The position numbers and the translations under genes were made by a program. This document shows positions 1 to 47,800 of a stretch of DNA of 64,000 nt, piece by piece. The notes beneath the pieces were generated by a model. It made no database searches. It was not told the DNA's origin and saw nothing but the letters and a program-made list of their open reading frames with translations. Within the stretch, counting starts at the first letter, position 1, and every line of letters begins with the position of its first letter. Origin of the DNA: Lytechinus pictus (lineage: Eukaryota); the NCBI RefSeq assembly GCF_037042905.1, contig NC_087245.1, positions 22,508,001 through 22,572,000 on the forward strand, given 5' to 3'.

Positions 1-3000
1 CCGTACGCTTACAGCATGCATAGGGTAACGATGCTGTGATTTCAAACGATTTGAAACATTACAACACTTTCGAAGATGCGAAAATGATGGATGGAGAAAA
101 CTTCCGAAGTAGACTTAATATGTTTAAGACATGTAAGATGAAAACAATAAATTGTTTCTTTGTTTCTGAAATTTGATGGCCTAATTTGTCTGAAGTTTAG
201 GCCTGTGGGCTGCTACACCGAAATGCCCCAAATAGGCCTATATACGTTGGGACAACATCCATTCTTCGTCAGCCCCACCCTGGAAAAAAACTCGAGAATA
301 TCGGCCTTCGTGGGCACACTACAACAATAATCCTCAACAAAGAAAGATGAACAGAAGACGAAATGCGGGCAGAGGAGGTCGAGCAACCGGTCGCCCGTCC
401 CGGCAGCAGCCCGACACCTATCTCTTGAAAGGCCGTTGGCTGACAGCTGTCTTGGTCGTCCGTATTCAAACAACATAAACTCTTTTTGATTTTCTCCTCC
501 AAATAGGTGCGCTGTACAAACAGATTTTCCGTTATTTTGGGCAGCTGCTTGGTAGTCTCATGTCACCCTTCACTTTACAGACCCGTCAAAACTCCATCAA
601 TGACTCCGTACTGGAATGATCCCACTCGACGCTTACAATGTTCATGCCTGTACTAAGTTGGCTCTCGAGAAAACAAATGCTGATAAAATGCCTTAAAAAG
701 TTGGTAACGCTCATCGTCAACAGGCGATGTTTTCTGTCAGAAACCAACCAACTTCACAAGAATAACAAACTTTCATTAAAAACTTAAACAAAGATTAAAA
801 ATAGAACGACGGCAAATATGGTATAGCATGAACTTCTCATAAACAATAAACATCGTCACCAGAGCAGAGAATGTTCACTTTTTAGCTCTTCAAAAACTCT
901 TTAGATTCTCAATCATAACGTTAATATCTTGACAAGGATTTTACCTTCAGATTTTCGCAATATAATAAAGACAGGTAAAGAAATGCCACATAAATTTGAG
1001 TGAGACGAAACAAGTAAATAGAATTAGCGGGAAACTTGCAGGACATAAAATTATTAGGACGCCCGATACTAACGCTACGTGGGCAAATGCAATCATGTCA
1101 GAAATGAACAATGGTGGAGCGCGACGCCATGCCATCTGGAAAGCGTTTCATGAATACTTTATCATGTTTATAGTAATGGATTTCGCTGACAACTGTTAAA
1201 AGCGACTGTAATCATAGATTCTGATTGGCTGATAGGAAAATACGAACATTTGCAGAAAAAACTCTTTATGAAAAGCTCCCCATAATTTCATGTCGATACG
1301 AGTCTTATCGTATTACCGATGAGTGCAAGATGCAAAACGTTGAGGTTGCCGTTCAAACGATTTCATTTCGCTCGATCTAGAATCGCGGTAACGTGGACCT
1401 TACTGTTTTCAAGGTGTCATCAATTTGCGAAAAAAAAACCCATAGATTAAATGAAATGACAAGAAACCCGACACTGATTCCAATTATGATATGATTCCTA
1501 TATATACCATCCCATTCAACTAGTTCGTCAAACAGAGGAAAAATATTTTCCATTTTAAGTTATTGACGGCTATCATAGTAATCTGACGCTACAGGTATTA
1601 CATCGATGATACTACCTCTTTCAAAAGTTCTGAGGGTCACATGACTCTGTCCCATTTGCCTTTTTCTAGTCATCATATTATATATTAATGTTGACGAATA
1701 TGATTGCGTTTGAAAAGAATATTGGCAGATGACGTTCCAATAAATCCAATTCAATCACAAAATCATCCGATATCTAAACCGTGTTATTTGCTGAATTAAA
1801 AACACACTTTATCATACATGCCATCTCATTCTTGGTCGGTGAAGGTGTGACGAGTAGATACAAATGACACCAATAGCGTGAGCGATCATGTCCAAAATAG
1901 TGTGACGTCATCTGTATTTGTCGTTTGTCCATGCGGGTGACCAAGGGCGCTCAAGGGCAAACCCGCGGTCATCGAGGTGTCCGTGCCATTGTGGACGAAG
2001 ATACACTTCACTCGTCGAATCGACCTCCAGCCATTGTAGTCAAGCGATTATCAAGGGACTTCATTGAAAAGGTAAACAAACTCAAAGTCAAACAAGATGA
2101 CAGCTGACGAGGTGCCTTCTTTTATTCCCAGTTTTGACGAAATCAAAGAGTGTTCGATGGATAACCCAACGATCTGGGGGTCATTAAGCTAATAATATAT
2201 CGTCGACAGCCAGTTAATCTACATCCAGGCGATGTCAGTTCGATAAGAGTCACGATTTCTCAGAACGAAGTTTGACAGCTATTCGCTGGCTTCCAACAAA
2301 ACAAATAACTTGGCTATCAGAAGTTCAGCTGATCTATGCTAGTAATATCCTAAGTGCGATTGAATTGGCACGCTTGGACCAGGGAGTGCCAGATATCACA
2401 ACATACTGTAATGTCATAATAAGTTATGTAGTTTAGTTTTCGTCGGGGTATTGATGATTTTCATTGAAATTATCGGGTATCGGATCGTTGACGAACTACA
2501 GCGATGTTGAAAGACGATCTGAAAAAAAAATCTGATATGATTTTAAAACAATGTACATTTCAATGCTCGTAGTTTATTTAATAAACTTCTTCGTCAAAAC
2601 CGTCGCAGCGATCTTCAGAAATTTTTTCATTTAAGTTCATAAAGTAACAAAGAAGTGACAAAGAATGAAATTGGAATTATATACATGGTGTGCCTTAATC
2701 GACATTATGTTTTTAACTGTCATAACTAAACATCTCTCTGCGACTCTCGTCAACAGCACCCTTCGTAATGCAATTCTCAAATAAAATACACTGTATCTTT
2801 GGAAGTAAGTGACCTCATTAGAATAAAACTGAAAATTAGCATATCTTATGATGACATGTGACAAGCTCGCTAACGTCTGATTCGTCAGCCAATCGCCCAG
2901 CACCCGTTGGTGGATAAGGGTTGCCATTTGGGACGCGCCGCTGCCTTTTTGTTCTCCAACTTCCCAAGAATAGACGAAATTTTATTAAATTGTCTTTTAC

Positions 3001-24700: not shown

Positions 24701-25339
24701 TGAAATCATGCATGTATTATGTTGGATTATATGATTAAATACAGCACATGTGTTTTTGTATATGTTGTATATTTTTCCTTACATATTAAAGTGCAATCTG
24801 TTTTTTTTTTTTTTTACACGATCCTTTTCAGTGTGAAAAGACGATTATCAAAGTATACTTGTTTGTACAAGTTCATTATTGTGATGATTATGTTACTTGT
24901 TAGGTAAAGAAAAGTTTGAAATATGACATCACTAGGTTTATTTTTGACAACTCTGATCACTTATATAGGTTAAGTTTATGCAGCTTGTGAAAATTGCAAT
25001 GTATCTGAATCACATTATAATTCTGTAATCATGATTTCTGGAAGCTTTTGTTCATATTGTTGGAAAGTAGTATTTAAAAATATATTGGAGTTGTATTTGA
25101 GAGCACTGGATGGTATTACTAAAGATGTTTTAAGATGCATGAAGGATCCCATTTCATAAAGACACCAATTGCACAATTTCTATAACAAGTTCACTTTCAA
25201 CCATTCATGTTGAATGGTTTCAGTAGCTTGAAACTGTTATTGAAAATGTATGATTGTAACAGGTTATATGAATTTAGCCTCTGTTCCTGGATGCTGAATC
25301 AGATTCACAATCATTTTGACTCCTGTTAGAAAAGTTGAA

Positions 25340-25770
25340 ATCGGGAGAGCATTTTCACCCACATTTCTTGTCTGACAAGTTGTCACGTCTGCCATCTTTC
25401 CTTGATTTAGATTGGCTGAGAAGACTGTTGCTATGGTAACTGTCAGATTTAAATGGATAAAGCGGGGGAGCATTTCGTGAAAGGACTTGTCAGACGTTTT
25501 ATCCGTACTAATGGTGGTTCATAGCCAATCAAAATCAAGGAAAGTTGTCAGATCAGACAACTTGTCGAGCAAAAATGTTGATGAAATGCTCCCAACTTGT
25601 CGCGCGAAAATGTGGAGCGTTTCATCACCATTTTCGCCTGACAAGTTGTCAGATCTGCCATCTTTCCTTGATTTTGATTGGCTATAGAGGCACTGTTACT
25701 ATAGTAACTGTCGGATAAAACAGGACTTGTCGGAAAAAATGTCCGACAAGTCCTTTCATGAAACGCTCCC
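25340..25770. mobile_element. Cluster of three short GGGAGC-TIR MITE copies in alternating orientation
   Basis: Copies at ~25340-25460, 25466-25593 and 25614-25770 share AGCCAATC-AAATCAAGGAAAG and GACAAGTTGTC motifs. Confidence 0.7.
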
Positions 25771-28700
25771 CGATCTGTGCAGATCCCTAACAAATATCTG
25801 AATGAACATTGATGATTTGTCAACTTTTGATAAAGATTTAGGAAAAAAGTAAACACCAACCAGGCTGGCTCTTTTTTGCCATATGTTGCCAGATGCTTTT
25901 ATACATTAGATTAGAAAAATGTTAGTTTACGGCAAATTTCAAAAGTGTAGGGGAAATGGCAAACTGTACAGAAAATCAAATGTGTTGATAAGTTTCAAGA
26001 TCATTTTTCTCAAAGCAGTCATACTAGTAGTATGGTGTACATAAGTTAAGACAATTGGCTATCTTGTTTTGTTGCTTTTCCTTTTTTAATCTAAATCTGC
26101 ATATCATGTACAAAACTACTGGTAGGATTGATCTCTAGAACATTTTGATAAACAGTCTGTTTTGTTTAATAAGTTTTTGTAGTTGAGAATAAAGATGATT
26201 GTTTAACTGAATATATCATTGATCAATATGAATGGATGTTGATGAATAAAAATTCAGTTACTGAGGTATTTACTTGTGTGTGGAAGATGTTAGTTCTCTT
26301 CACATGGCGAACCAAAATTTGAAGTCATAGCAAACCCTCAATGGGCTATCATTATGTTTCATGAAAGTTTAAAGTAAAAATGCTTTATTCACATAATCTG
26401 TTGGCTTTAGAATTGAAATTGTGTTGAATGAATGCACACAAGTGTAATTGCTTGTTGTTTGGTTCTTTGTTTTAAAATCATTCAATTTTGGTTCTAATGA
26501 CAACCATAAGACTAGGTTTGTCAAAAAGTGGTTTTAATTTTTCAGACTACAGGGCTGAATTGGACTGTATACAGCAAGTTTGGAATTGTGTTAGTCTTCT
26601 CTAAAGACCCACTTGTTTATTAAAGCTCAGCAATTCTTTCCGTATAGTGTTCAGACATTGTCAGACAAATAGTCTTTACTTATGCTACAAAATGTGCATT
26701 ACCCGCTTCGGTCCTCAACATTGTCATGAGTTGCGAGGAATATTTGCTTTATTACTCAAGAAAATTATATGTATGACAAGTTCAGTTGTACTTAATTGAT
26801 TAGAATAAATTATAAGTATTCAGAAATCAGAATTTGTATAATCAAGAAATCTATTCTAAATTCATCCATCAATTGATATATAGAGTTAGTACATGTTATT
26901 AGGCCCTTTCACATATATCTAGGTGTACACATACATTTGATAACAAGAATCGTGAATGTGAAGACATTCTAATGATGTTGAATTCTCCTTTTTTCTATAA
27001 TTTTACAAGAAATTTTAGCAATTGGAATATTGGATACATGTTATTCTTCAGAAAGAAAGAAAAATGGTAAAATCTATTAATTGGATGGCTAACTAATGGT
27101 AAAAATGTAGAAAGTGATATTCTTTCCTTAAACTCGTTACTCGATAGAAAATTTATATGAATTTATGTGATAATACAATGTTGGTTACCAAAGTTTTTTT
27201 TTTTGCTGGTTTAGGTACCTATTCATTGATTTTTCTTTTGATATCAGGAATATTAGTTGAATCATTGTGAATGCAAATTCCGAGCAAACTGAGTCAATAT
27301 AATGAATATTCTTTTTAAGTCCTTTGAAGCCAAAGTTTATTAGAAGGGGTGTTGTATTGGTTGCAATGCCAGAGAACTGCATGTAAAATAATGAATTAGT
27401 ATACGTTAAGAATGTAATTACAGAGGCTCCAAATTCATATGACAGACAGGTCCACATACATGTACAAGGAGCTAGAAACATGGGCTCACTTTACAGATCA
27501 CATCCCCCAGTATCAGACCCCTTCCCTATTTTCAAACATGCTCATTGAAATGTGGATATGAGTTACACTAGGCAAACTTTGTAATGTGTTGTTGTGCAAT
27601 GAGGCTCTGAAATTAAGATTGCAAGTTTGTGCAGAAAGAACAGTTTATTCATATTTATTTTGAGCTGGAATGTAGGACTTTAGTCTAGTTGTGTAATAGC
27701 TCCCAGAATGTATGCATTCACTTTTTGATTTCATCCCATTTATCCAGGTTCATGCTTATTCCATTTGGTTTATTGATACATGATGCATCATGTTTATATA
27801 GAGACTGAAGAAACAGCTGTACAAAAATATTATGTTCATAGTCAAGTCCTGACAGTATTAATGTTATGCATGTTATTCGGAAAGTTTAAAATGTATGGAA
27901 GTTATTCCTGGATGTTTGATTTTCATTGATATTATATGTTGAGCAGAGTGTACCACATTCAAATGTTTCAGCTGAGTGTATGACATTAAAATATTTCACT
28001 AAAGAATCAACTATTTTCTGACTTTTTTTTTTCCAAAAAGTGTTCTTAATTTTTGTTTTAGATGTTATTCGTTAGCTGCACTCTTAAATAAGATTAGGAA
28101 ATGTTGTGACTGAATTATCTTCAAGCACTAGTAATTGTATGCATGCAGAAATTTTATCTTTTCTCTAAAAAGTTTGCATATTCTTATCCATACTTCTACC
28201 TATTTTAAGGTTTTTCAGAAGACCTTTTATTCTTGTCCTGATGTCAATTTCCTATGCCACCGGGGACCTGTTGCTGAAAGAGTTTTATTCAAATATATTG
28301 TTTAGTAGTGGGAGAGTTGGTGCTTTGGAGGCTTAAAAAATGATTCCTATTTATATCATGATATAAGATCCTAAGTTCGTAGATCCGAAATTGCTATAGC
28401 TCTTAAAAATCTTCGGTTCACACATGCACCAACAACCCAAAAAAACTTCTGAATGGCAATGCAAAACTTTTTATCAATTTCACTTTTGGCCTTTTATTTG
28501 AATGCTACTATTACAGTATGTCCGATTTGTTTGTTTTTAGTAGCATTTTCAGAGATGCCAGCTTTTTAAATTAAGAATCAGGGAGGATTTCTAAATATTG
28601 AATTATGTACAAGTAGCGTATCCCAAGCGCGAATATTAAAATGATTTTAATTAAAATATTTTTCTGCAATGGGACCCCTACATTAATCAAAATGATATAA

Positions 28701-29160
28701 AGATCATTGATTTTAGGAATAGTTAAGACTGTTTTATAACTAAAACCTGCAGATTTTCTCTCTCGAGGAACATTTCTAATAGTTATTCTTTAATAGCAAA
28801 ACATTACAATTCATGTCCTAATCGTTCATAACAGTCATTCCAATCTTCTTTTTTATTTGGAGGAGGAGTTCGATTTGTGTTCATTCCTGCAAATGTGTAA
28901 AGACAGGTGTTGAGTTTCATGAATTGTGAAATATATATATTTTTAGAATGACCTTAAAATGTGATGAAAGATTCTTATCGATAATCGTAACTCATATTAT
29001 CATTTATTTTTATTTCATTTTATTTTTTAATCATCATCATCATCTTGTATATTTTATTTTATCATTAAATCCTATTTTCCTTTAATATTTCTTTTTCAGT
29101 TTTTCAAAAAAAAGAAGAAGATAATACATACACCTTATATCTGCAGACAAAAGACAATGA

Positions 29161-29478
29161 GGCCCGTATTCTGAACTCGGGTTTAAATTAAACCCTGTTT
29201 TAAAGTTGCGGTTTAACTATGGAGAGCCAGTTGGGGCACAAATCCCTAACAGTACACATCCAATTTATTAACTCATATGATACCTAAACTGTTCATAATT
29301 GTTTGGGAATTATAAATTAAGTATTTTGAAGTATTTTTCTTCATTATGAAAGCAAACTATTGAACATAAGAAATATACAATAGAAACAGAATTTTTGAAT
29401 ATTTGGCTCCCCATAATTTTAGCACAGAGTTACATGTAGGCCATGGTCTAAGTTAAACCTGACTTCAGAATACGGGCC
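29161..29478. mobile_element. Harbinger-like MITE
   Basis: TIR GGCCCGTATTCTGAA...TTCAGAATACGGGCC, flanks TGA/TAA. Confidence 0.8.
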
Positions 29479-31158
29479 TAAGTCTTGACACAATGTAACA
29501 GAAAAAAAGCTCTTATCCTGGTAACAATGGACTATTTTAATACTGCATCTTGAATATTAGAATCACAGTACAAGAAATACATACAAATGTGCATTTTTCC
29601 TATTTTTTTTTCTTTTCACTTTAATTCAAACACTACATTTCAAAAGGTTCATAAGACAATGGCCAACATTTACCATACCTCCAAATAAATAACTGCATCA
29701 TGATAGGAAATTAACTACACATAAACAATACATATGGAAAACTAGGATGTTTGGTGAAAGACAATACTACAAAGAAATACAATATACCAGTTGGGTCGGA
29801 ATTCATCAAAAGATGTATTACATGATTTAAGTACCCACACAGGAATAAAGCAGGTATGTTGAATACTCAGAAATTTCTTTAAAGGTATAAATGTATTAAT
29901 GAATGAATACACATTCTTAATCAATATGTGTACCATTATATAACTCCCACTTCCCTGATAATATTAAATTGGCTATTACAATCTTTTGGAATTTTGAGTC
30001 AAATAAAATTGTGTGGAGCATGGTCAGAAGACTGTGAAAACATAAGTTCATTTTCCAAGTGTTAAATGTACATTTATATCAAGTTCATAGGATTCAAGAA
30101 ATGCAATTTCTTCATGACTACCTTGACTTTTAGTCGCATGGTGTAATAAATGATGTCTATTCAGTAACTCATGGTACGCGTGCATTGTTACTAAAGATGA
30201 ATAAGAATTAACATTTCATGTTCATGTATAAAATTGCAAAAACCATCCCCATTTATTACAGACTAAATATATATTAATTTCTCTTTGATCATAAATTATC
30301 ATTATACATGTATATGAATACAAAGATTTAGAATACATATTGTAATACAAAAGAAAAGATTACAAAACAAACATATAGAAAACAATACAAAATAAATGTG
30401 AAAAAAGATACAAAAGGAATAGAAAAATCAATGCCTTTAAACATGCAATAGTTAGTGGAAAATAGATTACTTTTACCAGTTGTCTGATACCAAATGGTCA
30501 TAGGTTTTAGTATAAAATATTCATAGGATTACATGTATGCGTTTCTTGAACTTACTTATGCATTAATTTTTTGCAAAATATATTTATATTGATTGCAAAC
30601 TATTACTTTTTACTCATGATTACATAATTAACTTACACCAGCACAACCAAATGAGGTACACTTAATGATATTAGAAAAAAAAAATATTTCAGGCAATTTT
30701 CAGATTGCTAGCACGTTGAATTGAGCAATGGTTCAGACATTTCTCAAATACCCAGGTATTTATTAGTTATTCTATGAGGTACTCCTAATTGCACCATTTT
30801 TTGTATGGAGCCTTTTTAGCTCCAAGATATTTCATAAACTGGGGTAATAAGGACGAAATTGTGCCTTGTCTAAGGGCATTGGTGCCAAAGCAGCCAGTGA
30901 ACTTGGGGACAGGACAAGAGAGTCGAGAAAGCATCCACTATTATACCAGGACAATACTTTTCATCATGTATTGCTATGTATAATAAAAAATGTACTTAAA
31001 CGTTCTTTACTATCGAATTAAAGTAACACAGGATGTGAATGCCAAGTTGTGCTTCATAGATGACACAACTTATGCTCTAGAGACAATTGCTCCCGGCTTT
31101 ATTTCGTCTGAGATATAGGGTTAGTGTTAGGTTGCAATAGGGTTCTATCTTAGGTTTA

Positions 31159-31320: not shown

Positions 31321-34300
31321 TTAGGATAGGGTACAGTATTAAATGAAGGGTTGAAGTTGGTCATTCCATTAGTGTGTGGAATTTACAGCGAAGCAATTGT
31401 TGCCGGAGCATATGTCATGGAACCGCTTCATATTCTACAAATCAGCACAATAATATCTGAAGAAAAATAAAAAAGAGTAAGCTACCATCGAGACATCCCA
31501 TGATGCAATTCAATCACCACCTGGCACGTACATTGTACCTTAAAACAACAAAAGTAACGCAAAAACCAATACACCCTGAATAAACAAATTAAATCACTTT
31601 GCTGGACACTTCAACACATCATTGCACACATTACACATGGATGGAAATTAGATGTTGCAGTTAACTAAAGCTATTCCTTGCTTCAAAATACTTTCCATTC
31701 TAACACCCCAAAATAAAAATCCTCCCTAGGATCATTTCCAATGGAGTCTTTTCGCTCGCAACAAAATACAACATGTATTTGGTCATATACACTGCATATG
31801 CTATGGGTACACCAGTTTGTAGTGGTACATTGTAACAAGTTTTCTGAAATTATAGAGCAATACTTGATGCATGCAAATTGAATGATATAGCTCTTTCTAG
31901 GTGCCCATAGCCAAAATGTGTACAAATTAAGATTATTCACCAGAACAATCTACTAATCACTCATGAAGTATTGAATGACATTCAGTTGAGGGTATCAATT
32001 TTTCAAGGGATTTAAAGTTTTCAAGGGACACCTTAGTTTTTAGTTACTTCTCAAAGTGCACCAATTCACTTTACGTGTTAATATATGTGGATATTAAGGT
32101 TCATTTAAGGGATCAACTAACTACAAACTGGCCTGTTGTTATCAATGAACAAGTTCACATAAGCAATTTATTTCAAAATTGTAAGTAGGAAAGCTTAATA
32201 GCAGGGAAAAAACAAAAATTTCAAATTTGTCTTAGCCAACCTTAGACACGTAATACGATACATGAACATGTAGGGCTGACTATGCAAAATTTAAGAGACA
32301 GGGACTTGTGTACTATGGAACAAGTCACAGAACTATCATTACATGATGCAATCATTTGTGAAAAAATAATATCCTTATGAAGTTATGGCAGCTAGAGAAC
32401 ACCATTGAACAGTCTGCAAATACATACTAGAATTATGGCATGTGACCTGGGACTTGTGCTATGTTGGGTTAAAAATAACTTCAGGTATTATTATTAAGTA
32501 CATTCCTGGTTAACATCTCTGCAGAGACTATTTAAGTAGATAATTTACAAGTGCTATTTCAGTTACAAATAACTGTGTAACAATCATGCTAGCTCTACAA
32601 ACATTCATCTATTTAAACATGGAGTGATTTCTTTTTATCATGGATTAGAAGCAGGGATCTTAAAACTATATTGGCAGTGAAACAAAAGTCAAACAAAACT
32701 AAACCAGAGGCTTGGTTCTGAATGACACAATCAGTGCTCAAAATATTAAAATAACTGTTACTTGACAAAAAGTGTGTTTGCCAAATTGCACACCAAAAAC
32801 ATCAAAAGATAGAGTTTCTACCCACTGAATCTTATGACACATATCATCAAATAAGTCTTGACAAGTCAATTGGGAGTCAAAGTGAAAAATAAATCTATAA
32901 CTGTCAGCAGGTTTGCTCAATAATTAGAGCATACATAACACCATGACAAAGTAAGATTCTTTCAATCAGAGTCCATGGCAAGGAACATTGATATGAAATC
33001 CCAAATCCTAACAATATATTAACTGTCTTTTATCCAGAGTATTTACTTGGCCGTATCAACATATATATATATTGCCCCGGTTTATACATTATAAAATACG
33101 TGTAGCATATACCTTGTGACATCATTTCATTACCTAATATCTTGCATAAATATACAGATTTCAACTGTATACCTTGCCTGCATACTGTACGTCAAATATG
33201 AACACTGTACATTGAAGAGTGATGATCACTAAAAAAATGGCTGCTATTATATACAAACAAGTCAAAACCAAATTATGCATCATGAATTCAAAGTGGAAAT
33301 GCATTATTGAGGAATGAGTGGACTCAATGGAGAAAAGGGTTTTGTGATGTGACGACGGAGCACTAAATTATAACTGTACAAGATTGGAAACTGTATAAAG
33401 ACAAAATATCATTACATCACACATACAGAATATATCAAGATCTTTCTGTGTATGTAACACTCTTCACTGAATGTAACAATTTTCTACTGAATAAAAACAT
33501 ATTGCTGCATTAATACATAAACTGAACATTTGTGAATGTATAAGCTTTTACAGTGTATTCCTGAAGAGATCACATTTTTACAATAATTTGAAAGGTAAAT
33601 ATTGGAAAGTTTAATTTGTCTTTTTTCATTTTTTGGCATGAGACAATCTTACACGTACATTTTATTTGAGATTGTAAGTGGGAAAATATTCATGGTATGA
33701 TCTGAAAGTGCATCAAACTTTTTAACACAAATTTCTTGGTCCCAACTGAATATATGATCTTCTAGAATACCACATATGTCTTGGTTTATAGTAATTTTTG
33801 TAGTTTGAAAAATACTCTCTCCTTTCAAGAAAAGGTATGCGTTCAACTCATGCATTGTAAATAGCAGGGATGCAGTCAATGCTGGTAGTTCCGAGTCTAG
33901 AGTCTCTAACAGACTCTGTACATGTGACATGGACCAAGGCTGAAGCCGAGGCCAAGGCTGGCAAAATGTGGCCTCAAGGCTGTCCTCAACAACATCCCTA
34001 GTACATCTGTAAACAGATCTATTTACCCCAGACTGGCCAATTAAATAATGTGATTATTATTTTTTGTTCTACTTTACTTACTTGACTCCAACGATGTTGT
34101 TCTTGACGTTTTTTTTTTTTTTTTGGATACATCATATCTTGGTCTTCTTGGTCTCAAGTGGAAATGAAGTGTGCATATGGAGTGTAAAAGGACTTTGTGA
34201 ATTCTGGCATTATTTCAAGGAAATAGTTGATTACAAACAAGTGCATTATCTTAGTGAAATTCAGGATTCTTTGGGAAATTAAAGGAAACAAATGCAATTT

Positions 34301-34398
34301 ATGAAAAAAAGAACAAAACATGGAATTTCCACACCATTTATCCTCAACAATGGTGTATTCCAACATAAAAGACACTCTAACACTTAAGAATATAAAGT

Positions 34399-34464
34399 CA
34401 AAAAGGGGCCTAAGCTTTCGATCCTAGCAGAATCTTCGTCGGAGGCAAACTTCGTCGGAGGCAA
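34399..34464 (-). mobile_element. Tiny Penelope-like insertion consisting of a minimal hammerhead motif, with a 17-bp direct repeat on both sides
   Basis: ACTTAAGAATATAAAGT at 34382-34398 and 34465-34481. The insert matches 58031-58080 and contains a 16-bp tandem duplication (CTTCGTCGGAGGCAAA). Confidence 0.75.
34408..34446 (-). ncRNA. Minimal type I hammerhead ribozyme-like motif (U4C core variant)
   Basis: The minus strand reads GCCU-CCGACGA-A-GAUUC-UGCUA-GGAUC-GAAA-GC-UU-AGGC: stem I GCCU/AGGC, a 5-bp stem II, and a palindromic AAGCUU in place of stem III. Confidence 0.6.
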
Positions 34465-35694
34465 ACTTAAGAATATAAAGTAATTCACCTAGAAATCAAA
34501 TAATTAATTCATATCATGAACATAGATCAAACACAATCAATGAAACACAGCAAAACAAAACCTTTCTTTCTTTATATTGAGAGTCACAGACCAAGACTTC
34601 TCACTACTTATTTCACAAGTTTGCAAAAATTCAATCTGTGAGAACTCCAAAATAAAAAGAAAAATAACAACAGTAGCACTTATAACAAAACAAGTCAAAA
34701 AGTGAGCAAAAAGTGAGAATTACATATTTCATGATATGGTAGATCAATATTTGGACCTTTCAAGAAGATCTCTACATAACTTATGATTTTAGTTGGTCCA
34801 GAGACAGCTTGAAAACCACAACTCTAATTTTGACGATATGCATCCACATCCAAACATTTTTCAATAAATTAAAAGCTAACGATCATCCAAATAATGCAAG
34901 TCATATATCAACATGATTACAAACTCATTATTGGAATGATGATGGTATGCTAAACACAATAAGTGCTTCAAAATTTTGAAGAATAAATTAATAATCCATT
35001 AACACCACTGTTCCATTATGAATATTTATTGTGCAGCAATGATTACATCACTGGTAAGTGATAATTATTATCATTCTGCCTCTTTGGATATCAACTGTCG
35101 GGCCTTGATTTTCTAGCTCTGTTTTTGTCCATTACAAGTTCCATCTCCGGCAAGTAAATATTTGCAGCATTTCCCTCTATGAATATCAACTGTTGAGCCT
35201 TGGTTTCCCAGCATTACTTGTTGAATACATGTAAGAATAACTCACTTCATAAAGCAGCTCAATGAGCTCATAAATATTGCCATCCAGGTGCTAGTTAATT
35301 AAAGCTTCCTTATCCCCACAACATCCTCCTCTTGCATTTCCATACAGTGAATTGCACATCAATTTACGGACTGGTATATTATTACCAACCATACTCTTCA
35401 TAGAGACACTTTACGTCAAGTCAGTTTATCTCAAGCTTTCATGGAAAGTAGATTAGAATTGCTAACTCCCCCTTTTGTGAGAACTTCTGATAGGTAAACA
35501 CCCTGTAAGTATCATATTTCCACATTGAAAACTGCCCCTCGACAGAGTTGATTAAGACCTGTTCATGCACCAGGCACAAACACGCTCTTCACAAAAAGAC
35601 CGGTACCTCGCACTCAAAGATGAGTTCATATTGCTCCTCATGGCAACCCATCATGTTGAAGATGGGGTTGGGCATCATACTCAAAGAGAGACTG

Positions 35695-35819
35695 TTACCC
35701 CATGTTGTCCAGGACAGTCTGTGCAAGCTGTTTGAGTTGTTCAGGATGAGATGAGGTCAGAATGGTGTCTACCAGTCTGGGTAATGATGATTCACCAAAT
35801 GCTGTCCTGAAGGCTTCCG
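35695..35819 (-). CDS. VAC8: Vac8-like last coding exon (13), 125 nt including TAA
   Basis: ttgcAG acceptor in the required phase 1; [41 protein letters not shown]. Confidence 0.75.
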
Positions 35820-38800
35820 CTGCAATTGATATAGAACCATCGTGAAAGGATGTCAAATTATGATCATTAACATTAAACATAAATGCCAGTAAAGGTAACA
35901 ATCTAAAAATGAACAGAACAGAATCCAATGAAATGATGAAATGTTTGTATGTATATGTATAAATATAAGTGCCAAATAATTCTAAATGTGTACTTTCTGA
36001 GAAATGAGCTAAATGAGCATGAGATAACGAGATGGAACTAGGTGTTGTACATGGCATATCCCTCTAACCTGGCTACATGAGGAAATTATAAACTGATTAA
36101 TAGATCCCTCATTCTATAGTCATCCTTTAGGCCACCTCTTTCGGCTGATTGCTGGTCAATAAAGGTCGATAGCCAGACGTAAATTATCATATCTGATTGA
36201 TACTCATCTGCAAAACTCCCCAAGCACAAACATTAAGGGACAAAAGACACATGGCAAGCATATACAAACCTTTTAGGAGATGAACAATGGTCCAGAGAGC
36301 AATGTGGATAAAGTTTGAATCTGAACTTCTGAGGAAACGGGTAAGGTATTTATGAGTGTTGGAAATATTGAGAGTAATCAGTTCAGACTGCAGACCTAGA
36401 AGGATAATAAAGACAAACTGGCTTTAGGAAGAGTGACATTTACTACCATTGTCATCACCTATATCATAACAAAGTAAAAGTACTTTCCCACCACTTCCAT
36501 CATTGTAAATCATCATCATCACCACTACAACCATTTTACTATGATCATCACAGCCATACTTTTCCTTATGGTATTCAGCAACATCATCCACTGTGATCAT
36601 TATCTGCACCACCACCATCACCACCATCATCATCATCATCATCATCACTATCATCCTCACCACCAACACCACCTTCACCATCACCGCTACCACCCTCACC
36701 ACCATCACCGCTACCACCACCACCACCACCACCCTCACCACCATCACCGCTACCACCATCACCATCACCATCATAATCATCACCCTCACCACCACCACCA
36801 TCACCACCACCACCACCGCCGCCACCACCACCACCACCACCACCACCACCACCACCACCACCACCACCATCACCATCATCATCACCATCACCATCACCAT
36901 CATCAACACCATCACCACCACTGCTGCCATCACAAATAATTTCCTCCTCCTCCTTGCATTCAGTATCACCATCCTCACCATATATATTCTACTATATTCT
37001 ACACCATCAACAATACCAACACTATCATATCTACCGGAGGAAGGTGCGCTTACTGAATAAAGCAAGTTGTCCAATGGTGCCTGCACTGTTATACTGAACC
37101 TCCCTGCTCGGTGAGCATGCTGCTAGAGATACCAATCGGCTGAATACACGCCCCTCACCAACATGGAGTAGTATCTGCTTGGCTTCATCTAAAAACGAGA
37201 GAAAAACACAGAAAACATTGAATTAGATGACTGGTTCTTATGATCTGTGGGTAAGTTGAATTCTAACATGGATACCAAAATCAAACAAAAATCTTTGAAC
37301 AATTGAAGATTTATCTATCAGCATCTTTGATACTTCCACTAACATGAACTGGGTAATAGTGGTTGATTCACAAAACAATCTAATACCAATTTATATTGTG
37401 TTTCGCTGTGAGTGTTGCAATCATACATATTCATACAGTTAAATTCCAGTGTTGTTTTCACTTTTGAAAACAATTTATTTTCTCTGTGAGCTTTGTACAA
37501 GAGAAGTTAACATGAGGCTATAATGCTTATTAGGAACTATGTATAGAATAAGTACCAGTATCAATGGTACAATCAGAAAAACAAGATTCAAAGAGAATAC
37601 ATAAAGAGCAATGGTCATCATTATCTCTTCAGAATTACTTAAATCCACAAAGAGTCAAATATATATTGCTTTCTTTATACTGTCCTTATATCATAATCCA
37701 ATGAAGGAGGGGGTAAATGTTTGGACACCCATGGTAATGCAACAAGACTTACCATTGCCAGCTATGATGGCCAATGCAGCGGTCACTTCCGTCTGGACGG
37801 CAACAGGTGAGGTGGACTCTAAGAACACTGATATCAATCCATCAAGGGCACCAGAACTCAGGATCATCTAAATGGTGATTACATACATGTACGCCAGAAT
37901 TAAACAAAGTATTTCTTTATTCAATTTCCTCATTAAATATACAACATAAGTAATACATATCTAACTTCAATATTTTACAATGTGGGGAATTCATAAAAAG
38001 TCTCAACCTTTTAATAACTCCAAAATAATCATGAGAATTGAAATTGATTGATATTTCTTGAATAAATCTTTAATTAACAAAAGAACATGTTTTTATTTTG
38101 GGGGTCCAACCATCATTTTAAAGTTCTGAAATTCAAAGAAAAATGGGATGAAAATATAATTCAATACATCAAAATATTGCCACTTTCAAGAGAGATTGAC
38201 TCTGTTCTCAATTTTGGGGTGTTTATTATAACTACATGAGTTGGCAGAATCAATCAAATCCATGATATTTCTGACATTTCTAATATTTTTTCCACAGCCG
38301 TCTCTAGTCTTGTTCCAAGCAATCTTACCTTAGTCTTACTCCCAGCAGCTAGATTACGTAATGTTCCTGCAGCATGGCATTGTGCATCCCACATCATGGG
38401 CTGTCTTAGAACGCTTGTGATCTCTTCTAAGAATCCCTCTTCAACTATCGGGATCTACAAGAAAAATAGTTTGTTCAAACGTTATTTAAATGAGTGACAT
38501 TGGTTGCATCGAGCAATTAGGAAAAGTGATCATTGGATATCAGTAAGATTTTTTAAAATCTTTAGTTCAGATTTCATTATTTACTGATATTCTCCAGGAC
38601 AAATATTTAAATTTGAAATGTTGAAGCCTCTGTAAATTACAAACTGTATGTTCAAAACATTTTGGAGTCTTAGAAAATATTGACAAGAAACATAAACGAC
38701 CATTACAAGAACTGGAAGAAAATCCGGGATGATGATAGTTTTCAAACATTTGCATTGGTGTTCACTTCCTTAGTATATAAATATTTGAGAATTTCAGACT

Positions 38801-41800
38801 AGCATTTTCTAACAACAAATTTAAAGATATGCCAATATTTTCAAGTATGAAAATTAAAATTCTTTAAATCTATAATGCATTAACCAATAGCTTTGATATC
38901 TACCTCATTGAGTCTATGGATTGAGAGGTTACGCAGCGCAGCGATGGCGGCTGACAAGGTCTCCTTTGAACTATCCTTCATAATGGCATGAAGATGAGGA
39001 AGCCCTCCTAATGTTACTATGGCAACCTGATTCTCATCTGATCAACAAGATGGAGAGATAAGGGGATGATACAATGTATAAAATTATAGGCATATAATTA
39101 TAGGCGCAAAGCTCTGTCGGTAGAGCAGGGATTTCGGATTAAGGTGACCCGGGTTCGATTCCCACTTGGTGCGCTAGTACCTTTAGGTAAGGCATTAATC
39201 ATCATTACCAGGCCCCTGGATAAAGACCTTAAGCATTTGGCCCTCTGGTTGCTTGCTTATAAGCATTCATACTTTCTTAGCAATCAGGTAAAATATAAAT
39301 CACCACCAAAAAATTCACAAAGATTACTTTTAATAACAGTAATTATTTTGACACCACTGTCGACAGCATTTAAATTCTGGAGTACTAGGACTCCTTGAGA
39401 GCAAGATATTGATACTTAAAAAATTTCTGTCTAATTGGTAAAAAATAAATAACATGATAAATTATAGATATAATAATGAATAATGGTTGAAATTTGTGAC
39501 ATCATAATCATTAATTCATCAATGAGTTTCTGAACTATTCTTAATAAAGAGACAAAAGTGAGCTTATTTGTGGAAAACTTAAAAAATTTTCATCTTTTGA
39601 ATTTCTTCTGTATTTATGTAAAATATTGTAACTGTTTATATGCATTTGTACGTATTCAAAATATATATTTCCACTGTAATGATGTTTGTATTTTTACTCA
39701 ATTGTGGAAATGATTTAATTTACTGAACCTGTCATTTAAATATCATACCCTTGGTCATTCATTGAAATCTAACATTTAGTCTCCTGATATCACAATACAT
39801 GTACATATACCATCTATGAAGACTGTGATTAAAAAATTGATACAATTTTAGCTTTTAGGAATCCAGAGCTTAGTGTGATAATGACTACTTTATTGTCAAG
39901 GGCAAAGGTATTGCATATTTAATAATGCAGATTTAAAACTGAATAATAAATCAAATATAAATTAATTCCTACTTGATAGGTTGAATGCCAGGACAATCAT
40001 TTCATAATTACCATTGTATGATGTCCAAGGCTACTTTCTATGATTCATTTGCAATAAAAGATACAATACATATCCTATAATAGCATTCAAATAAATTGCA
40101 CAAAACTTTTGTGAAATATCTCCCTGGTTGTTGAATAAATTCATGACAAACCTTTTTAAGACATGAACGTTACAATAATTTAAGCTTTGTGTTAGAGGAT
40201 AGGATAAAGTCAAATTTGTTCATGAGCCTTGGAGATAGCAAATCCCAGATAGGAAATGTTTACGCTCAAAACAATAAATATTTTTCAAATTTTCTTCCTT
40301 TCAGCTAATAACCAGGACAGAAATGCTTCTATGATATTTTTTTCCTCACAAGTTGAAACCTAAATAGAATAGCACATAATGGTTTCATTCCAGTAGATTT
40401 TTAAAGTGCATGGTGGGTAACAAAGTTATATTCAAACATTTTCATTCTAATTTTCTTCTACCAAATTCATAAATGATCTTTGATACTTACCATCGGAGGC
40501 TAGGTTTCTGAGAGCAAAGCAAGCTTGACATTTCACCTGTAAAGGCAAGTTTTAGATAACATAGTGTGAGTTATAGTTATTATTAAAAATAATTTAGTTA
40601 ACATAGATGGGTCTTATTCAGCCTTTTCCCTAATGATGTACTTACCAATGGAATCTGGAATGATACAAACAGAAACAAAATGATTGGGCTATGCCAAATC
40701 TACCAATGTCAGACATACAAAGCAATCCTTAGGCTTGAGACTCCCACCTTTGGATATCTTGCTCATACCCCAATATCTCCTTACGCCTGTATCACAGTCT
40801 ATTTCCATATACATCATACACAACGCCAGAGGGGGTCACTTACATAACAGCTATTTGGTCATAAACTTAAAGGATAGAAGGTTTGATGTCCGAAGCAGAT
40901 AAAAACATCTTTTGCTCTTGGTTTCCTCAAAATACATGCATCAATCAGCACAAATAATTGCGAAAGTGTTGCGATAAGATAATCTGTGATTTATTTTAAC
41001 AAAAATATTAAATATTGATTGCTAAAAGTTCTTGAAATTGCCATCTTCATTGGACAAACAACCCATCAAAATATATTCTTGGTTACCTACCTTATCAGCC
41101 GGTGAGTTTAATAGACTGATGAGCATCTTGATGACTTGATGATTACCTTCCTTAACCACGGAAACACGATGCTTCTCATCCACAGCAAGGTTACTGAGTG
41201 CCGCTGCACAGTAGTATTGGATGTCAGTGTCTTGTGACTGCAGCAATGTCAGGAAAGTTGTGACTGCACCCAGGTTTACTAACACAGTCCTGTTAGAATC
41301 TAAGGGAACAGAGAAGAAATATGGTTAACATGATGTTTCTGATCTACAGCAAGGTTACTGAGTGCCGCTGCACAGTAGTATTGGATGTCAGTGTCTTGTG
41401 ACTGCAGCAATGTCAGGAAAGTTGTGACTGCACCCAGGTTTACTAGCACAGTCCTGTAAGAATCTAAGGGAACAGAGAAGAAATATGGTTCACACGATGC
41501 TTCTCATCCACAGGAAGGTTACCAAGTGCCGCAGCACATTAGTATTGGAAGTCAGTGTCTCGTGACTGCAGCAATGTCAGGAAGGTTGTGACTGCACCCA
41601 GATTTGATATTCCTGTTAGAATCTAAACAAAAAGTGTGGTAAACAATGGAAACACTGTGATACCCCAATTACAAGTTGGATCTCATTATGTATTGCAAAT
41701 TCTTGAATTAAGAACAAATGTAAAATAGCTGGTACTAAAAAAAGTGTGTTAAAGGGATACTCTAGGCTGAAGATATTTATATTTAATAGAGTAAAATTCA

Positions 41801-44800
41801 CAGAGCAAAATGCTTAAAATTTCATCAAAATCGGATGACAAATAATGAAGTTATTGAATTTTAAAGTTCAGCAATATTTTGTGAAAACAGTTATATGCAC
41901 CTCGTCATGAATATTCATTCCGTGGGCTGATGATGTCACATCTCCACTTTCCTTTTTCTTGTTATTACATGGAATCATAATTGTTTCATTTTTTCATACA
42001 TGTGTAAATGATGTGTCTCCATTATGATGAAACAAGTTGCAGCAATAAATAACTAATGCACTTATCAGATGTCAATCCAATCGTTTTAGTTCTTGGTAGA
42101 AATTTTTTGAATAAACCTAATTTCATATAATAAAATACAAAAGAACAAGTGGGGATATGACATCATCAGTATGCTCATTGAATATTCATGAATACATACC
42201 TAAAACTTTTTCACTGGAATAATGCAAATCTTTTTAATTCAATAACTTTGTTGTTTATTTTCCGATTTTGATCAAATTCCTCTGTGAATTTTACTCTAAT
42301 TTATTTAGATATAAATATCTTCAGCCTGGAGTATCCCTTTAAGCATTGGACAGAAAAAAATCAACATGACTAAATGAAATACGTATGATGAAATCATTAT
42401 AAAACAGGGATGCCACTAGGTGTCCTCCACAAATACTGAAACTTATCGCGGGCAGGGACAGTGTCCAAGAACAGTGAATTGGGGCATTGGGGGCGGAAGC
42501 CAAAAAATTTAGGGGGGTCCACCTTAAATTTTGGGATGGACACAGGTAAAAAATTGGACAAGCAAGCAAAAAAAAAAAAAAGTTAACAAATTTTAGGGGG
42601 GGGGGTCCGTCACCCCACCTCAAATTTAGGGGGGGGGGGGGAAGGACCAAGTGGCTTCTTATCTTGTTGTGATCGATGACTTCGAAGTCAAGGTTTGAAA
42701 AACTGACGGTACTTAGTTGTTGTGTGTTGCTCCTAGAACGCTAGACCAAAAGCTTCAGTCTCTGTATTTTGGTTGTTCTGCTAAACCGCGTTGGCTCCAC
42801 TTTCTAATACATAGACTGAAGAGTTGTTGGCCAGTACGTAAAGACAACGTATCAGCTAAACCAGGGAGCTCCGGCCCACTTCGCGGGCCAGAGTGTCCTG
42901 AGTTAGCCAATACGTAACCCAGGGAGCTCCGGGACGCTTCGCAGGCCGGAGCTCCCTGGATTACGTATCGGCATGCAGCAGTAACGTTAGATCTAACATT
43001 CATCGGAAACCCAATGAAATTATATTGATCTAATAACCATATTTGTGTAAGTTTTATGAAATAGAGACATATAGAGATGATTTTTCTCAATAAATTACGA
43101 TTTTGAAAAAAAAAAAAAACGTACTAAATATGCCAAAAACATACTGGTTGGCAGGTCTGTATCATCCCTTCATTCTACAATACTTGGAAGTCAGAACCTA
43201 TGGAACAGGTTATGAGCATTCACTTTAATGAATAAAAAGAAGAGTCTATGATTCTATACCTTCGAGGACACTCCCTATCATTCCATGAGCATGTCTGCAC
43301 CAGGCAATGCAAGTAACACAAAATATCTGGAAAATTTCCTTTACTATTGCTAAGAAAGCATGAATGCTTGTAAGCAAGCAGCCAGAGGACATACGGCTTA
43401 AGGTCCTCTCCAAACCTGGTAATGAGGATTAGAGCCTTACTGAAGGGCTCTAACACACTAAGTGGGAATCAAAACCTGGGTTGTTGGAATACGAAACCCC
43501 TGCTCTACCGACTGAGCTATAACACTCCTCTCCTACTATTATCATACAGTCATTGTGACATTTTTTTTTTTTGGGGGGGGGGGCAATTGACTACAGTTAT
43601 GTGGATCGTAGAGTGACGTACAAGCTAATTTTCGTCGCAAACATGAGTTATCAGACCAATATCATGGAACTCTGGAGCCCCATGCAAAAAGCCCAGAGTA
43701 GTAAGGGTTGAGATGATCTGATACCAGACAATGTGGCTATAAAGTGTGTAGAGTAATGGTGAAGTAACCATTCGTGCTATTTTCAAGCAAAGTAGTCTAG
43801 ACGATTTTATATAGCCTATAGATGAGAGTTGAGAGTAATTACCTATGTGAGTGAGATTAAGTAATGCTCCAGCAGCATTGCGCTGAACTCTGATATCAGG
43901 TGATGTAGTCAATGAAATCAGAGGAGGGACACCGTTGCATGAAACTATGGCCATTTTGTTGGTATCTGGAAAGACAAAAAGATGGAGAAAGAGGAAGGAA
44001 GAGAGAGAAATGTATTACAGAGACATGATTTAAGTTCAGAATTATATAGCTTTATCACAAATCATTAGTATTATTATCATTATGCTTTCAGAAATAGAAA
44101 ACAAGACAGCATGTACAATGCAAGAATAAAATACAAAAAATACAAATAATTTTTAGACCCTTGCTCATACAACCAGGTAGCCTGGGTAGGGAATAGGCCA
44201 ACTAATAATAGCCTTGGCCCACAGGCCTTCCCTCCTAAAGTGATGATAGGGAGTTAGGGACTATGTTAAGAATTATATAGCTTTATCACAAATTATTAGT
44301 ATTATTATCATTATGCTTTCAGAAATAGAAAACAAGACAGCATGTACAATGCAAGAATAAAATACCAAAAATACAAATAATTTTTTAGACCCTTGCTCAT
44401 ACATGTACAACCAGGTAGCCTGGGTAGGGAATAGGCCAACTAATAATAGCCTTGGCCCACAGGCCTTCCCTCCTAAAGTGATGATAGGGAGTTAGGGACT
44501 ATGTTGGTGATAAGGATAATGATAAAACTAACAATGATCATCAAAGCCATTTTTGAAACTAGTATAATAATAATATTAAAATATCAATAATAATAACAAC
44601 ATTGACGATAATGATGATGACAATGATAATAATAATGAATTCTAAAAATAATTTCAAACTTACACCAATTTACAAAAGTCATTCATATCACACCCTATAG
44701 CACTTTAACAATACAAAACCCATTACAGTGCTACTTTAAAGACACACAATCATGCAAGGGTCATAATCATAGCGGCATGTAATGAAGACCAGACAGGGTT

Positions 44801-47800
44801 GATTGAGCTTAAGGGAATGGTTGTACATTGACTTCTATCAAAGTGAATAAACAAAATCAGAGCAATGCTGTGACACACACACAGTCTCTCAGTTTGTTTC
44901 ATATAAATGGATGTATACATTGTGGTCAGAAGAGCTTGAATACCATATGGCAGACAGGATGGGATGTTTAATAAGTTTGATCATTATAAAGGATCAGCCT
45001 AAGTTGAAACACAGACGCAGATTTACATAAAAACTCAACCTACAGGCCAGTATGCAATTGAGAAAGGCATATCACTCACTATTCCTTTTTCTATATGACA
45101 TATCATATTTCACCTTTCATCAATTTATTGATTTTCACTAAATCATAACTAATTGTAATAATGATGCTACATTTTCCACGATGTATCACATGAATCCAAC
45201 AAATATTGGGTTAAACAAACTTACTTGAGGTAGCGAGCGTAGTGATGCATCCACAAGCATTGCACTGGATCTCTACATTGTTTGAAGACAGTAGCTTGAT
45301 CAGCACAGGCAGAGCACCACACTTCACAATCACACTCTTGTTGCTCTCTGTTTCAAAATAAAATGCAATCAAAAGAGACAGACATCAAGGTAAATAAACA
45401 TTGTGGAAAAGACAGAAATAAAGCATTGTTACATTCATTTCATGATATTCAGGAAGAGTATCATAACAACAATGCTCCAATGCACAGAATTGTTCTTCCA
45501 GTGCACTCACATTAATACATAACAAATAATAGTTGACACTGAGGGGATGACAACCTAGCTGTAATCCCATAAATGCTTATCTGCATGCAGTGCATGTTAC
45601 CTTTGGGAAACTAATTTGTTATCATATGTTGATTCTAGTTCAGCAATCGCATTAGGTGCATTATGAACAGCCTTTCACAATCACTTTGATACGGTTACCT
45701 TTTCCTTTCAAATTCATAACCAGAATTAAAACTTATCTTTAAGAAGATTTTTAAAGCAATGAACACCTTTACTACAAATTCCAGAAAGTGAGAAATGAAA
45801 GATGAAGCGAATTAACCTTGAACATTATTTTGTTAAATTTTTGTACTTCCTTTTCTTTACAAAATACAAACATAAAAAAATATTTATCATGCATATCTTA
45901 CAACAGATTAATCTCCTGGGATAATTTTACTGACAATGTACTAAAAATGTCAATCATTGACATTTAATATATTTTAAATATTGTGTCATCTTGAATGATG
46001 CATTGACAATGTATCATTCAAGATGACATAACATTTTAAAGACACGTGCATTGGGAACAAAAATCAACTCATTCAAATACTTTGTAAAAGAATATATTGA
46101 TTGTGTTATTTAATGACATGACCCATTAATGAAATGAGCTATGACGACCTTACCGTGCCCACAAAGCGCAAAGTTACTGAGTGCAAGGGATGCTGCTTTC
46201 TGAGTCTCCACATCATGGGATTCCATCAACACAAGAATAGGTTCCATTACCTTGGATGATATCGGCTGCATTACTGAAAAAAAGAAAGAAGGATGACAAT
46301 TATAATGATGATGACGACAGAAGTGACAACAATACTCCAATCCATTCATATGTACAGCATTATCTAGTTGCCCAATCCAAGGCACTACTAATGAGACTGA
46401 CAACAAAAATGTCTTTTGATAATTCTAATTGAAAAAGATACAAATATCAACCAGTGCTACTTCTGAGGCCAAGGACGTGCAAACTGGCCCCTAGACATAC
46501 AACAGTGATAATAATAAATTAAATGTGACCTGTAAGAGTATTGAATAGAATAATGTGACCAGCCTACCCAAAATGAATAAGTCACCAGGGAAGGTTTTCT
46601 GTAAATAGTCAAAATAATAATTTTATTTTCAAATAGTAAAAATGAGAACATTTGCTCAAAAAAGTCATTCTTATTCTTCGTCGTGTTAAAATTTGAAGTT
46701 GTAAAATTGAATAAAAGACATGATACAATAGTTTCTTTGACTTATTGTTGGTTTGGGGGTGGCAGGTCACATAGGAGAAATCACAGGCAGGGATTCATAA
46801 CATCACTCTATTCCAAGGGGGAGGTCCCAACAGGTCATCCCCCTTGAACAATAGGTTTACTGCTCAAATTGCTGCCAATGGAAGCATTTTGTAGACTTGA
46901 AAATAAAGGTTTTTGAATCTTACATCTCTCGCTGATTTCTGCTAGGCATAATGCAGCTGACCTCTGTAAATCTGCATTCTCTGAATAAGTCAATGTACAG
47001 AGTGCTTCCAAACGCTCCTCAGAAATAGTTGGCTTCTCTTCATATTCTAGAAAAAAAAGAAGATACATACTGTGAGTACAAGTAATAGATACCAAATCTC
47101 AAAAGCATTAATATAAAAGCATTAAAAGCCCATTTGCAATTTTAAGATTTTGCATACAATTTCATTTTATACTTACATGTATGTAAAAACTTCAGGCATA
47201 ATGGGAAAGGCACAGTATATAATGTAATAATAAATAGTAATGATAATACAAGTAAGAATAATAATTGTTATCTTTATTTTGAATTAGATACAACCTACAT
47301 GTATATTGGCAAGGCAAAGCTTCCAGAGTGAGTTTATTTGTTGTTGGTTTATAATGGTTGTTTATCTTACATACTATTTGGAAAAAGTACATAAACAGAC
47401 CATATTCTTGTCAGAATTTACAATTGGAATCATGCCTGGTAATTTGAAAAATCATGCATGCAAAGTACCCTTTTTATGTGGTTATAGTTAAAAGACATAT
47501 TGCATAGGGACATATACAAATGACAGATTATTCTGCAAACTAACAGAAGTCAGTCACCTGACCTACATATAATCCCGCTATTTGTGATCCAGCAAATCCC
47601 AATCAGAACAAATCTCAATTTTATTTGTGATGAAGATGAGCAGGGTATTTTGTTCACTTAATCTCGAGATCGAAATCTCAACTGAACTTAATATTATTTG
47701 CAAGCTACATGTACATGTATTTCATGTATTGTCTAGCTAAGTGTAAAGCACATGTAATCTTGGGTAATCTTGGGTAAATGGAGTGGAAGGAAAGGGTCTG

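Follow-up and report, generated by a model that had tools for sequence, protein, structure and literature searches.

Penelope-like elements carry minimal hammerhead ribozymes (min-HHRs), for which Cervera & de la Pena and, reportedly, Lunse et al. (PMC5785218) are the sources. In the description of the former, the min-HHRs of metazoan Penelope-like pseudo-LTRs (pLTRs) have a short helix I, an extra nucleotide between A9 and G10.1, a G10.1–C11.1 pair and a palindromic 15.2–16.2 segment, and most copies are single and dispersed, so that dispersed single motifs are as such already described (Cervera & de la Pena 2014, PMC4209133). The hammerhead family that we report here, represented by an insert downstream of the Vac8 gene, shares all these traits, as well as the covariation to U3–A8, which is found in one of its relatives. 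It differs from the min-HHRs described in that paper in that C4 is fixed (1,501 copies vs 22 with U4) and the copies are very uniform, in that the motif lies 8 nt from the predicted RNA start and overlaps a DPE-like motif, and in that stubs with defined ends and target duplications occur. The function of Penelope-like hammerheads is described as unclear (PMC8557442). The anole min-HHR cleaved only with the protein of its element, and insertion could proceed without the motif (PMC11167929; review PMC6765202). The hammerhead of D. virilis Penelope adjoins an intron end (PMC4209133). The present family bears on how these elements are copied and on what role their hammerheads play.

In its protein and copy structure, the family resembles the Neptune and Nematis clades (Craig et al. 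2021, PMC8557442): a single ORF encodes the reverse transcriptase (RT) followed by GIY-YIG, with a DKG motif and a CX2-5CxxC linker, and copies show 5' truncation, partial tandems, head-to-head inversion and an optional tail. This tail is about 60 nt long in our family vs 30–40 in Neptune/Nematis, and the shared features place the family with Neptune or Nematis. The family also resembles PAc (Poseidon from Anolis; Frangieh et al. 2024, PMC11167929), with its two internal RT start sites bounding the tail, its AT-rich targets, its use of uncleaved RNA as template and its lack of ends at the hammerhead cut site. By contrast, PAc is described as priming without homology, but in our family 3' microhomologies a few bases long are frequent; in the accessible text of that paper we found no mention of run-off stubs or of a cap G.

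The core change itself has a precedent in a viroid U4C hammerhead, which has a much lower activity in vitro and is viable in vivo (cited in Perreault et al. 2011, PMC3088659). The viroid motif, however, is a complete hammerhead that makes tertiary contacts, whereas in our family the change is found in a minimal, dimer-dependent motif. Finally, animal non-LTR retrozymes are likewise non-coding and equipped with a type I hammerhead, with a proposed descent from pLTRs, but they form tandem arrays (10.64898/2026.07.22.740005), whereas the stub considered here is a single 60-nt unit. A retrozyme identity was ruled out by this single unit at 34382–34481 and by the lack of any head-to-tail array in 53 copies.

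A retrotransposed insert downstream of Vac8

The window, i.e. the whole stretch of DNA analysed, comprises 64,000 nt (C1:22,508,001–22,572,000), and the genome searched comprises 812 Mb in 368 contigs. Element positions are numbered from the A of TCATTT (+1), 5 nt before helix I. The features discussed below are the following.

34382–34398, minus strand: target-site duplication on the element's 3' side, 17 bp (direct repeat)
34394–34407, minus strand: part of the element beyond the ribozyme, down to the first of the family's two 3' end sites (about +57..+63); its final 5 nt also belong to the target (microhomology)
34408–34446, minus strand: motif of a minimal type I hammerhead, with the cleavage site predicted to lie between 34412 and 34411
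34420–34424, minus strand: 3' strand of helix II, which agrees with RGWYV, the DPE consensus, and lies at +28..+32 relative to the Inr-like TCATTT found in intact copies; putative promoter function
34450–34465, minus strand: tandem re-copy of element +3..+18 (5' strand of helix I and first core box), from which no second complete ribozyme results
34465–34481, minus strand: target-site duplication on the element's 5' side, 17 bp, 100% identical to 34382–34398
35025–35030, minus strand: AATAAA, the sole AWTAAA between the Vac8 stop and the motif; putative poly(A) signal
35695–48544, minus strand: coding span of Vac8 (armadillo-repeat vacuolar protein 8), with the last exon at 35826–35698 and the stop at 35695–35697
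58020–58276, minus strand: second family copy in the window, 257 nt, a 5'-truncated 3' end (3' UTR and hammerhead) located 9.5 kb upstream of the Vac8 start codon; its motif differs by G8A and by a change in helix II

An initial annotation of this DNA had noted an insert of about 66 bp between perfect 17-bp direct repeats, and this structure is real: the repeats at 34382–34398 and 34465–34481 bracket a 66-bp insert, and the probability of finding a given 17-mer of that composition at one place by chance is about 7e-10. Within the insert, 16 nt (34450–34465) are a tandem duplicate of the 5' part of the hammerhead motif (period 16, 100%), and a similar duplication is present at another locus (L002). 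Positions 34394–34449 are 100% identical to an intact family copy over 56 nt. Since the element sequence extends 5 nt into one of the direct repeats, the target-site duplication includes microhomology. The insert starts at +3, without the Inr-like motif and without the diagnostic extra G described below. An arrangement in which the 17-bp repeats are element sequence, the unit being a tandem or circle of about 67 nt, was ruled out by separate flanking element sequence and by locus-specific duplications. The data support the reading that a minimal dimeric hammerhead of the Penelope type, with U4C in its core, was retrotransposed with target-site duplication.

We also observed that the first 9 nt of the target duplication on the minus strand (34473–34481) coincide with a 9-mer that the element has in its 3' UTR, immediately upstream of the repeat; this match is probably due to chance or to a preference for AT-rich targets, 5 of the 9 nt being the 3' microhomology.

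Fold, core and covariation of the motif

On the minus strand, the motif reads as the initial annotation had described it, and all of its parts could be located: a 4-bp helix I (34446–34443/34411–34408), the core CCGACGA (34442–34436) followed by one bulged A, a 6-bp helix II (34434–34429/34425–34420), GAAA, the palindromic AGCU (34416–34413) and U17 (34412). The core positions are C3-C4-G5-A6-C7-G8-A9 and then G12-A13-A14. The MFE fold recovers helices I and II. With z values of -0.37 (45-mer) and +0.90 (insert), the folding energy was not above that of shuffled sequences, and no hammerhead family was among the nine matches at E<=10 in an Rfam scan of 33500–35500. Support for the hammerhead therefore comes from copy number and covariation.

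Ten related loci were available from metagenome contigs, six with the motif and four without a descriptor match, and the covariation alignment comprised eight sequences: the six relatives, the window copy and one intact family copy. In this alignment, 98.1% of the cells are paired and three pairs are changed on both sides; pairing drops to 18–55% in slid controls. The covariation amounted to 0.206 vs 0.106 for shuffled and <=0.06 for slid alignments, the sequences being few and related. Covariation occurs in helix II, in the C3–G8 pair (U3–A8 in one relative, an unpaired C3–A8 in another) and in the palindromic helix III. Helices I and II, with the G10.1–C11.1 pair and the bulged base after A9, are present and supported by covariation in these eight related sequences.

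The helix III palindrome is AGCU in the window copy and AAUU, AUAU, ACGU or AGCU in five of the six relatives, being broken in the sixth; it is also palindromic in 14 of the 14 sister-family loci fetched. That it varies yet stays palindromic is sensible only as pairing between two copies. For the AGCU duplex, the calculated energy is -2.5 kcal/mol; in the predicted homodimer, pairing takes place through helix II instead. Formation of a dimer in cis from the 16-nt duplicate was ruled out by the absence of a second GAAA and helix III. A descriptor that excluded the U4C family matched 897 places vs 106 for the control, and 95 of the first 100 have U4, with many different helix II sequences.

The core agrees with the consensus C3-U4-G5-A6-N7-G8-A9...G12-A13-A14-A15.1...U16.1-H17 except for C at position 4. 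The U4C assignment of the initial annotation is thereby confirmed, and C4 is the state of the whole family (1,501 C vs 22 U). As the family is uniformly C4 while the related elements have U4 (6/6), U4C is derived and fixed. Twelve of the 22 U4 copies were inspected and proved to be scattered across all copy types; the 22 would fit C-to-T decay at CpG. The family motif resembles the Penelope min-HHR in its workings and descends from it, but departs from it at U4, one of the defining positions of the core, and is hence a variant rather than a canonical member. Our literature search found no Penelope family with a fixed U4C; Lunse et al. may list C4 variants. A family that fixed a core change absent from its relatives and stayed highly active is a natural experiment on whether cleavage matters.

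The insert belongs to a young Penelope-like family

A 17-mer from the motif matched 1,928 places genome-wide with at most one mismatch (one per ~420 kb), vs 2 for the reversed control. A BLAST-type genome search gave only five matches, and copy numbers were therefore derived from pattern counts. When aligned, family copies display a common upstream region, a downstream tail and head-to-head pairs.

The hammerhead copies are linked to a Penelope RT and GIY-YIG, as the initial annotation had anticipated. At one locus (L036), two motif copies 4,922 bp apart enclose a near-full element with a broken RT and GIY-YIG ORF, the motif being present at both ends. At another (L052), the motif follows an intact 907-aa ORF with DKG (residue 304), YIDD and a CX4CxxC linker (residues 770–778). 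This ORF matches RVT_1 above the cut-off (E 8.9e-9) and GIY-YIG below it (E 0.0014, 19.3 bits vs a cut-off of 22.6), and PF01541 is listed for many homologues of the protein. An entry from Lytechinus variegatus is 96% identical to the element protein, with 57% of the query aligned; together with the match of the neighbouring gene to Strongylocentrotus Vac8, this points to a sea urchin. An RT search yielded at least 119 matches from the 117 of 715 candidates that were scored; many of these are 96–98% identical, with open frames of up to ~900 aa, which indicates that the family is young. In full elements, the unit -3..+60 (or ..+120 with the 60-nt tail) forms a terminal repeat at both ends. The source family is thus likely to be a young, active Penelope-like element of the Neptune/Nematis type.

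In L052 and L036, the 5' UTR has a ~150-bp tandem duplication and a 3'-splice-site-like end just before the likely start codon; an in-frame upstream ATG extends the ORF to 907 aa. The second copy of the window (58020–58276) is on the same strand as Vac8, 23.6 kb from the 34408–34446 motif.

Copy ends are defined and often carry an extra G

Ends were determined by simple alignment extension in a set of 53 distinct copies, with 17 loci chosen by similarity or U4 pattern; an unselected set of 33 motif copies consisted of the first 30 loci of the 17-mer match list and the window's two copies. The 5' ends fall at -3..+4 in 28 of the 53 copies, and in 13 of the 33 unselected ones vs 4 over -4..-100 (L032 was counted although it is identical to L013 near the motif). 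As for the 3' ends, 36/53 lie at +53..63 and 15/53 at +113..123, with two others. By our own reading of the alignments, 10 of the 33 unselected copies are simple stubs and eight form four head-to-head pairs. Genome-wide, the junction with the upstream 3' UTR is found in 969 copies and the tail continues into the 5' UTR in only 34, so that most copies starting at -3..+4 are stubs. About half of the copies are devoid of the rest of the element, a rough figure, as the patterns behind the counts of 969 and 1,928 are not equally long. The term stand-alone, used earlier for the insert at 34382–34481, is apt as a description but does not denote a special trait, 10 of the 33 unselected copies, or roughly a third, being likewise simple stubs: this insert is one of hundreds of short stubs and is not special to its locus.

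At -4, where the element has T, 144 copies carry another base, and the first 100 of these, counted by eye, comprise 72 G, 20 A and 8 C (p about 3e-21 for 72 G relative to base composition, the junctions including paired or duplicated events that are not all independent). The G of the stub junctions precedes -3, not the Inr A. Indeed, a cap G at the Inr A (+1) was not seen, the control position -1 giving 14 G in the first 100 of 108. Element sequence was present upstream in none of 22 G junctions (20 fetched regions); in 11 G junctions with a duplication of at least 8 nt, the G is absent from the target in seven and present in four. These data suggest that the extra G at stub 5' ends may be a copied cap, as an untemplated 5' G has been read in L1 work (PMC9341517). 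However, R2 5' junctions obtained in vitro carry non-templated G and T (PMC13000458), so the extra Gs need not derive from a cap. Copies starting at the predicted cleavage site (+41) were not in excess (4 vs 3 at a control position): cleaved RNA is therefore not a frequent template, which does not show that cleavage is absent.

Head-to-head pairs of short units were seen at L018, L027, L030, L033, L041, L043, L045, L047, L050, L057 and L062; usually, one end lies near +60 and the other near +120, and re-copied 5' pieces are often found at the joint. The near-identical stub pairs L069 and L070 (C3:16,919,011 and 16,923,848), 4.8 kb apart with the same flanks, are a local segmental duplication, not two insertions.

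Promoter-like motifs overlap the hammerhead

We take TCATTT to be an Inr-like motif, in view of the Inr consensus. At +28..+32 from it, RGWYV occurs with exact spacing in the family and in four of the six related elements, and is off by one in two. RGWYV is the DPE consensus at +28..+32 (PMC5580651), an internal promoter of the Inr/DPE type is described for the D. virilis Penelope (PMC2377424) and the repeat of a rotifer element contains an Inr-like motif (PMC3846280). We infer that the family carries a putative internal Inr+DPE-like promoter overlapping the hammerhead. Among 14 sister-family loci, the arrangement was found in only one. A closing stem predicted in the intact copy (-3..+1 with sequence after helix I) was also considered and rejected: its 3' strand is changed in three of the six relatives while the 5' motif is kept, and the 5' motif is therefore better read as DNA.

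A second family (L087:1-131) likewise carries TCATT and, at +28..+32, an RGWYV match that the 3' strand of its helix II supplies; its loop and helix I differ in length.

Origin of the stubs

The insert at 34382–34481 is probably a dead-end run-off product from the 5' end of the RNA of an active Penelope-like element, most likely inert and placed by chance. Transcription would start at about -3, from the internal Inr+DPE-like promoter, and the element's RT would be primed at an AT-rich nick through a few bases of microhomology. RT would start internally, at +57..63 or +113..123, and both RNA ends would carry these start sites. A start at the 3' copy of the repeat would yield an ordinary 5'-truncated element; a start at the 5' copy would let RT reach the cap within ~60 or ~120 nt and run off there, leaving a hammerhead-only stub with target-site duplication or a head-to-head pair. 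In the window copy, RT would have run to +3 and copied +18..+3 once again before the product was joined; the RNA of this copy would provide one half of a dimeric ribozyme, unpartnered and slow (U4C), and would most likely be inert. A sharp 5' end with a cap-like G, combined with two fixed 3' ends, makes the stubs best read as run-off copies and not as random truncations; as the window copy starts at +3 without the diagnostic G, its own assignment to run-off follows from the family pattern. The initial annotation had proposed that target-primed reverse transcription copied only the ribozyme end of the element: retrotransposition with target-site duplication stands, whereas copying of the far end does not, the sharp 5' site and the cap-like G pointing to run-off.

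An extension of the run-off scheme, conceivable though doubtful, is that RT, having started near the 5' end of the RNA, reaches the cap after copying the ~60-nt hammerhead/promoter unit and switches from there to the RNA 3' end, where the repeat serves as R region. Failed jumps would then account for the stubs and head-to-head pairs, and the ribozyme of this family would persist chiefly in the role of promoter DNA and RT-start structure. If so, this strong-stop step would rebuild the pseudo-LTR in a retrovirus-like manner, and U4C could become fixed in a spreading family of ~1,900 copies.

It is unlikely that the stubs are 5'-truncated copies on which RT paused mid-RNA. Such pausing is not expected to generate the sharp -3..+4 cluster or the extra G at -4 (72/100), and RT stops 5–12 nt past helix I, not at helix I, even though 5'-truncated copies of all lengths exist (10 of the 33 unselected copies extend more than 100 nt upstream), single motifs have been ascribed to truncated elements (PMC4209133) and the window copy has no cap-like G. 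Recombination between the terminal repeats of full-length insertions, as for solo LTRs, would keep the duplication and any cap G and would account for the same ends; rotifer solo pLTRs have been ascribed to recombination or deletion, though without target duplications (PMC3846280), and one full element (L007) starts at -2. We nevertheless regard this origin as quite unlikely: only 34 copies have the 5' UTR vs several hundred stubs, in a family whose ORFs are 96–98% identical, the repeats are just 60–120 bp long, and neither the head-to-head short-unit pairs nor the 16-nt re-copy are products of recombination. Very improbably, the stubs could constitute a separate non-autonomous element (mini-retrozyme or SINE) with its own Inr+DPE, mobilised in trans: stubs starting at -3 or -2 do retain both promoter-like motifs and the RT start site, and animal retrozymes have been proposed to be pLTR-derived (10.64898/2026.07.22.740005), but the 53 copies examined contain neither a head-to-tail array nor private sequence, the stub ends coincide with those of the parent element and the window copy is without the Inr-like motif.

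The feature is thus real and of a known kind, and what we did not find in the literature is the fixed U4C, the run-off/cap reading and the promoter overlap. The search returned neither a run-off/cap mechanism nor a promoter overlap for Penelope hammerhead stubs; the figures and supplements of PMC4209133 and the preprint 10.64898/2026.07.22.740005 could bear on this point. While the locus is ordinary, the value lies in the family, whose hundreds of stubs record RT start and end sites and a probable cap signature.

Position relative to Vac8

The identity of the neighbouring gene is clear: over 89% of its length, one Vac8 exon piece is 69% identical to S. purpuratus vacuolar protein 8, and the last exon shares 95% identity with the C-terminus of the S. 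purpuratus protein. The motif is in sense orientation, with helix I starting 1,249 bp downstream of the Vac8 stop, in agreement with the ~1.25 kb originally given, and the AATAAA noted at ~35025 is present at 35025–35030.

The insert had been suspected of cleaving or destabilising the Vac8 mRNA. For it to act on Vac8, it would have to lie in the 3' UTR and to cleave or destabilise the mRNA, either by itself or in trans, paired with RNA of the element. Its sense orientation 1,249 bp past the stop, its identity with intact copies over 56 nt and the fact that long 3' UTRs are common among echinoderms count in favour of such an action. We consider it extremely unlikely: a single min-HHR did not cleave and dimers had only low activity (PMC4209133), a related Anolis motif cleaved only with the element's protein (PMC11167929), U4C lowers activity (PMC3088659), the AGCU duplex contributes only -2.5 kcal/mol and the predicted homodimer uses helix II, the AATAAA lies upstream of the insert, and chance alone should place a sense copy within 1,250 bp of the stop in 30–45 genes (assuming a total of 20,000–30,000). 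Moreover, the motif is without a partner in cis, the duplicate lacking the second core half and the other window copy being 23.6 kb off and G8A. A search of sequencing runs listed no RNA data set among those containing the stretch, which is neutral as to transcription. With a lone monomer, a weakened core and tens of genes expected to be so placed by chance, regulation of Vac8 is unsupported.

Other features of the window and of sister families

Within Vac8, an exon (residues ~213–259) is tandemly repeated 2.7 times at 41037–41616 (164-bp unit, 92% matches); the first exon copy is partial with a stop and the second is open, and the repeat could possibly provide an alternative Vac8 exon. Elsewhere in the window, a single-exon-like 934-aa ORF (18985–21789, plus strand) contains several C2H2-type zinc-finger motifs and an acidic stretch, as identified by eye, and two arrays of ~210-bp repeats (10946–12318 and 12658–13417) seemingly face in opposite orientation. 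Finally, in the sister hammerhead families L084, L085, L089 and L093, a pyrimidine run ending in CAG lies 4–6 nt before the core, like the intron end beside the hammerhead of the D. virilis Penelope (PMC4209133).
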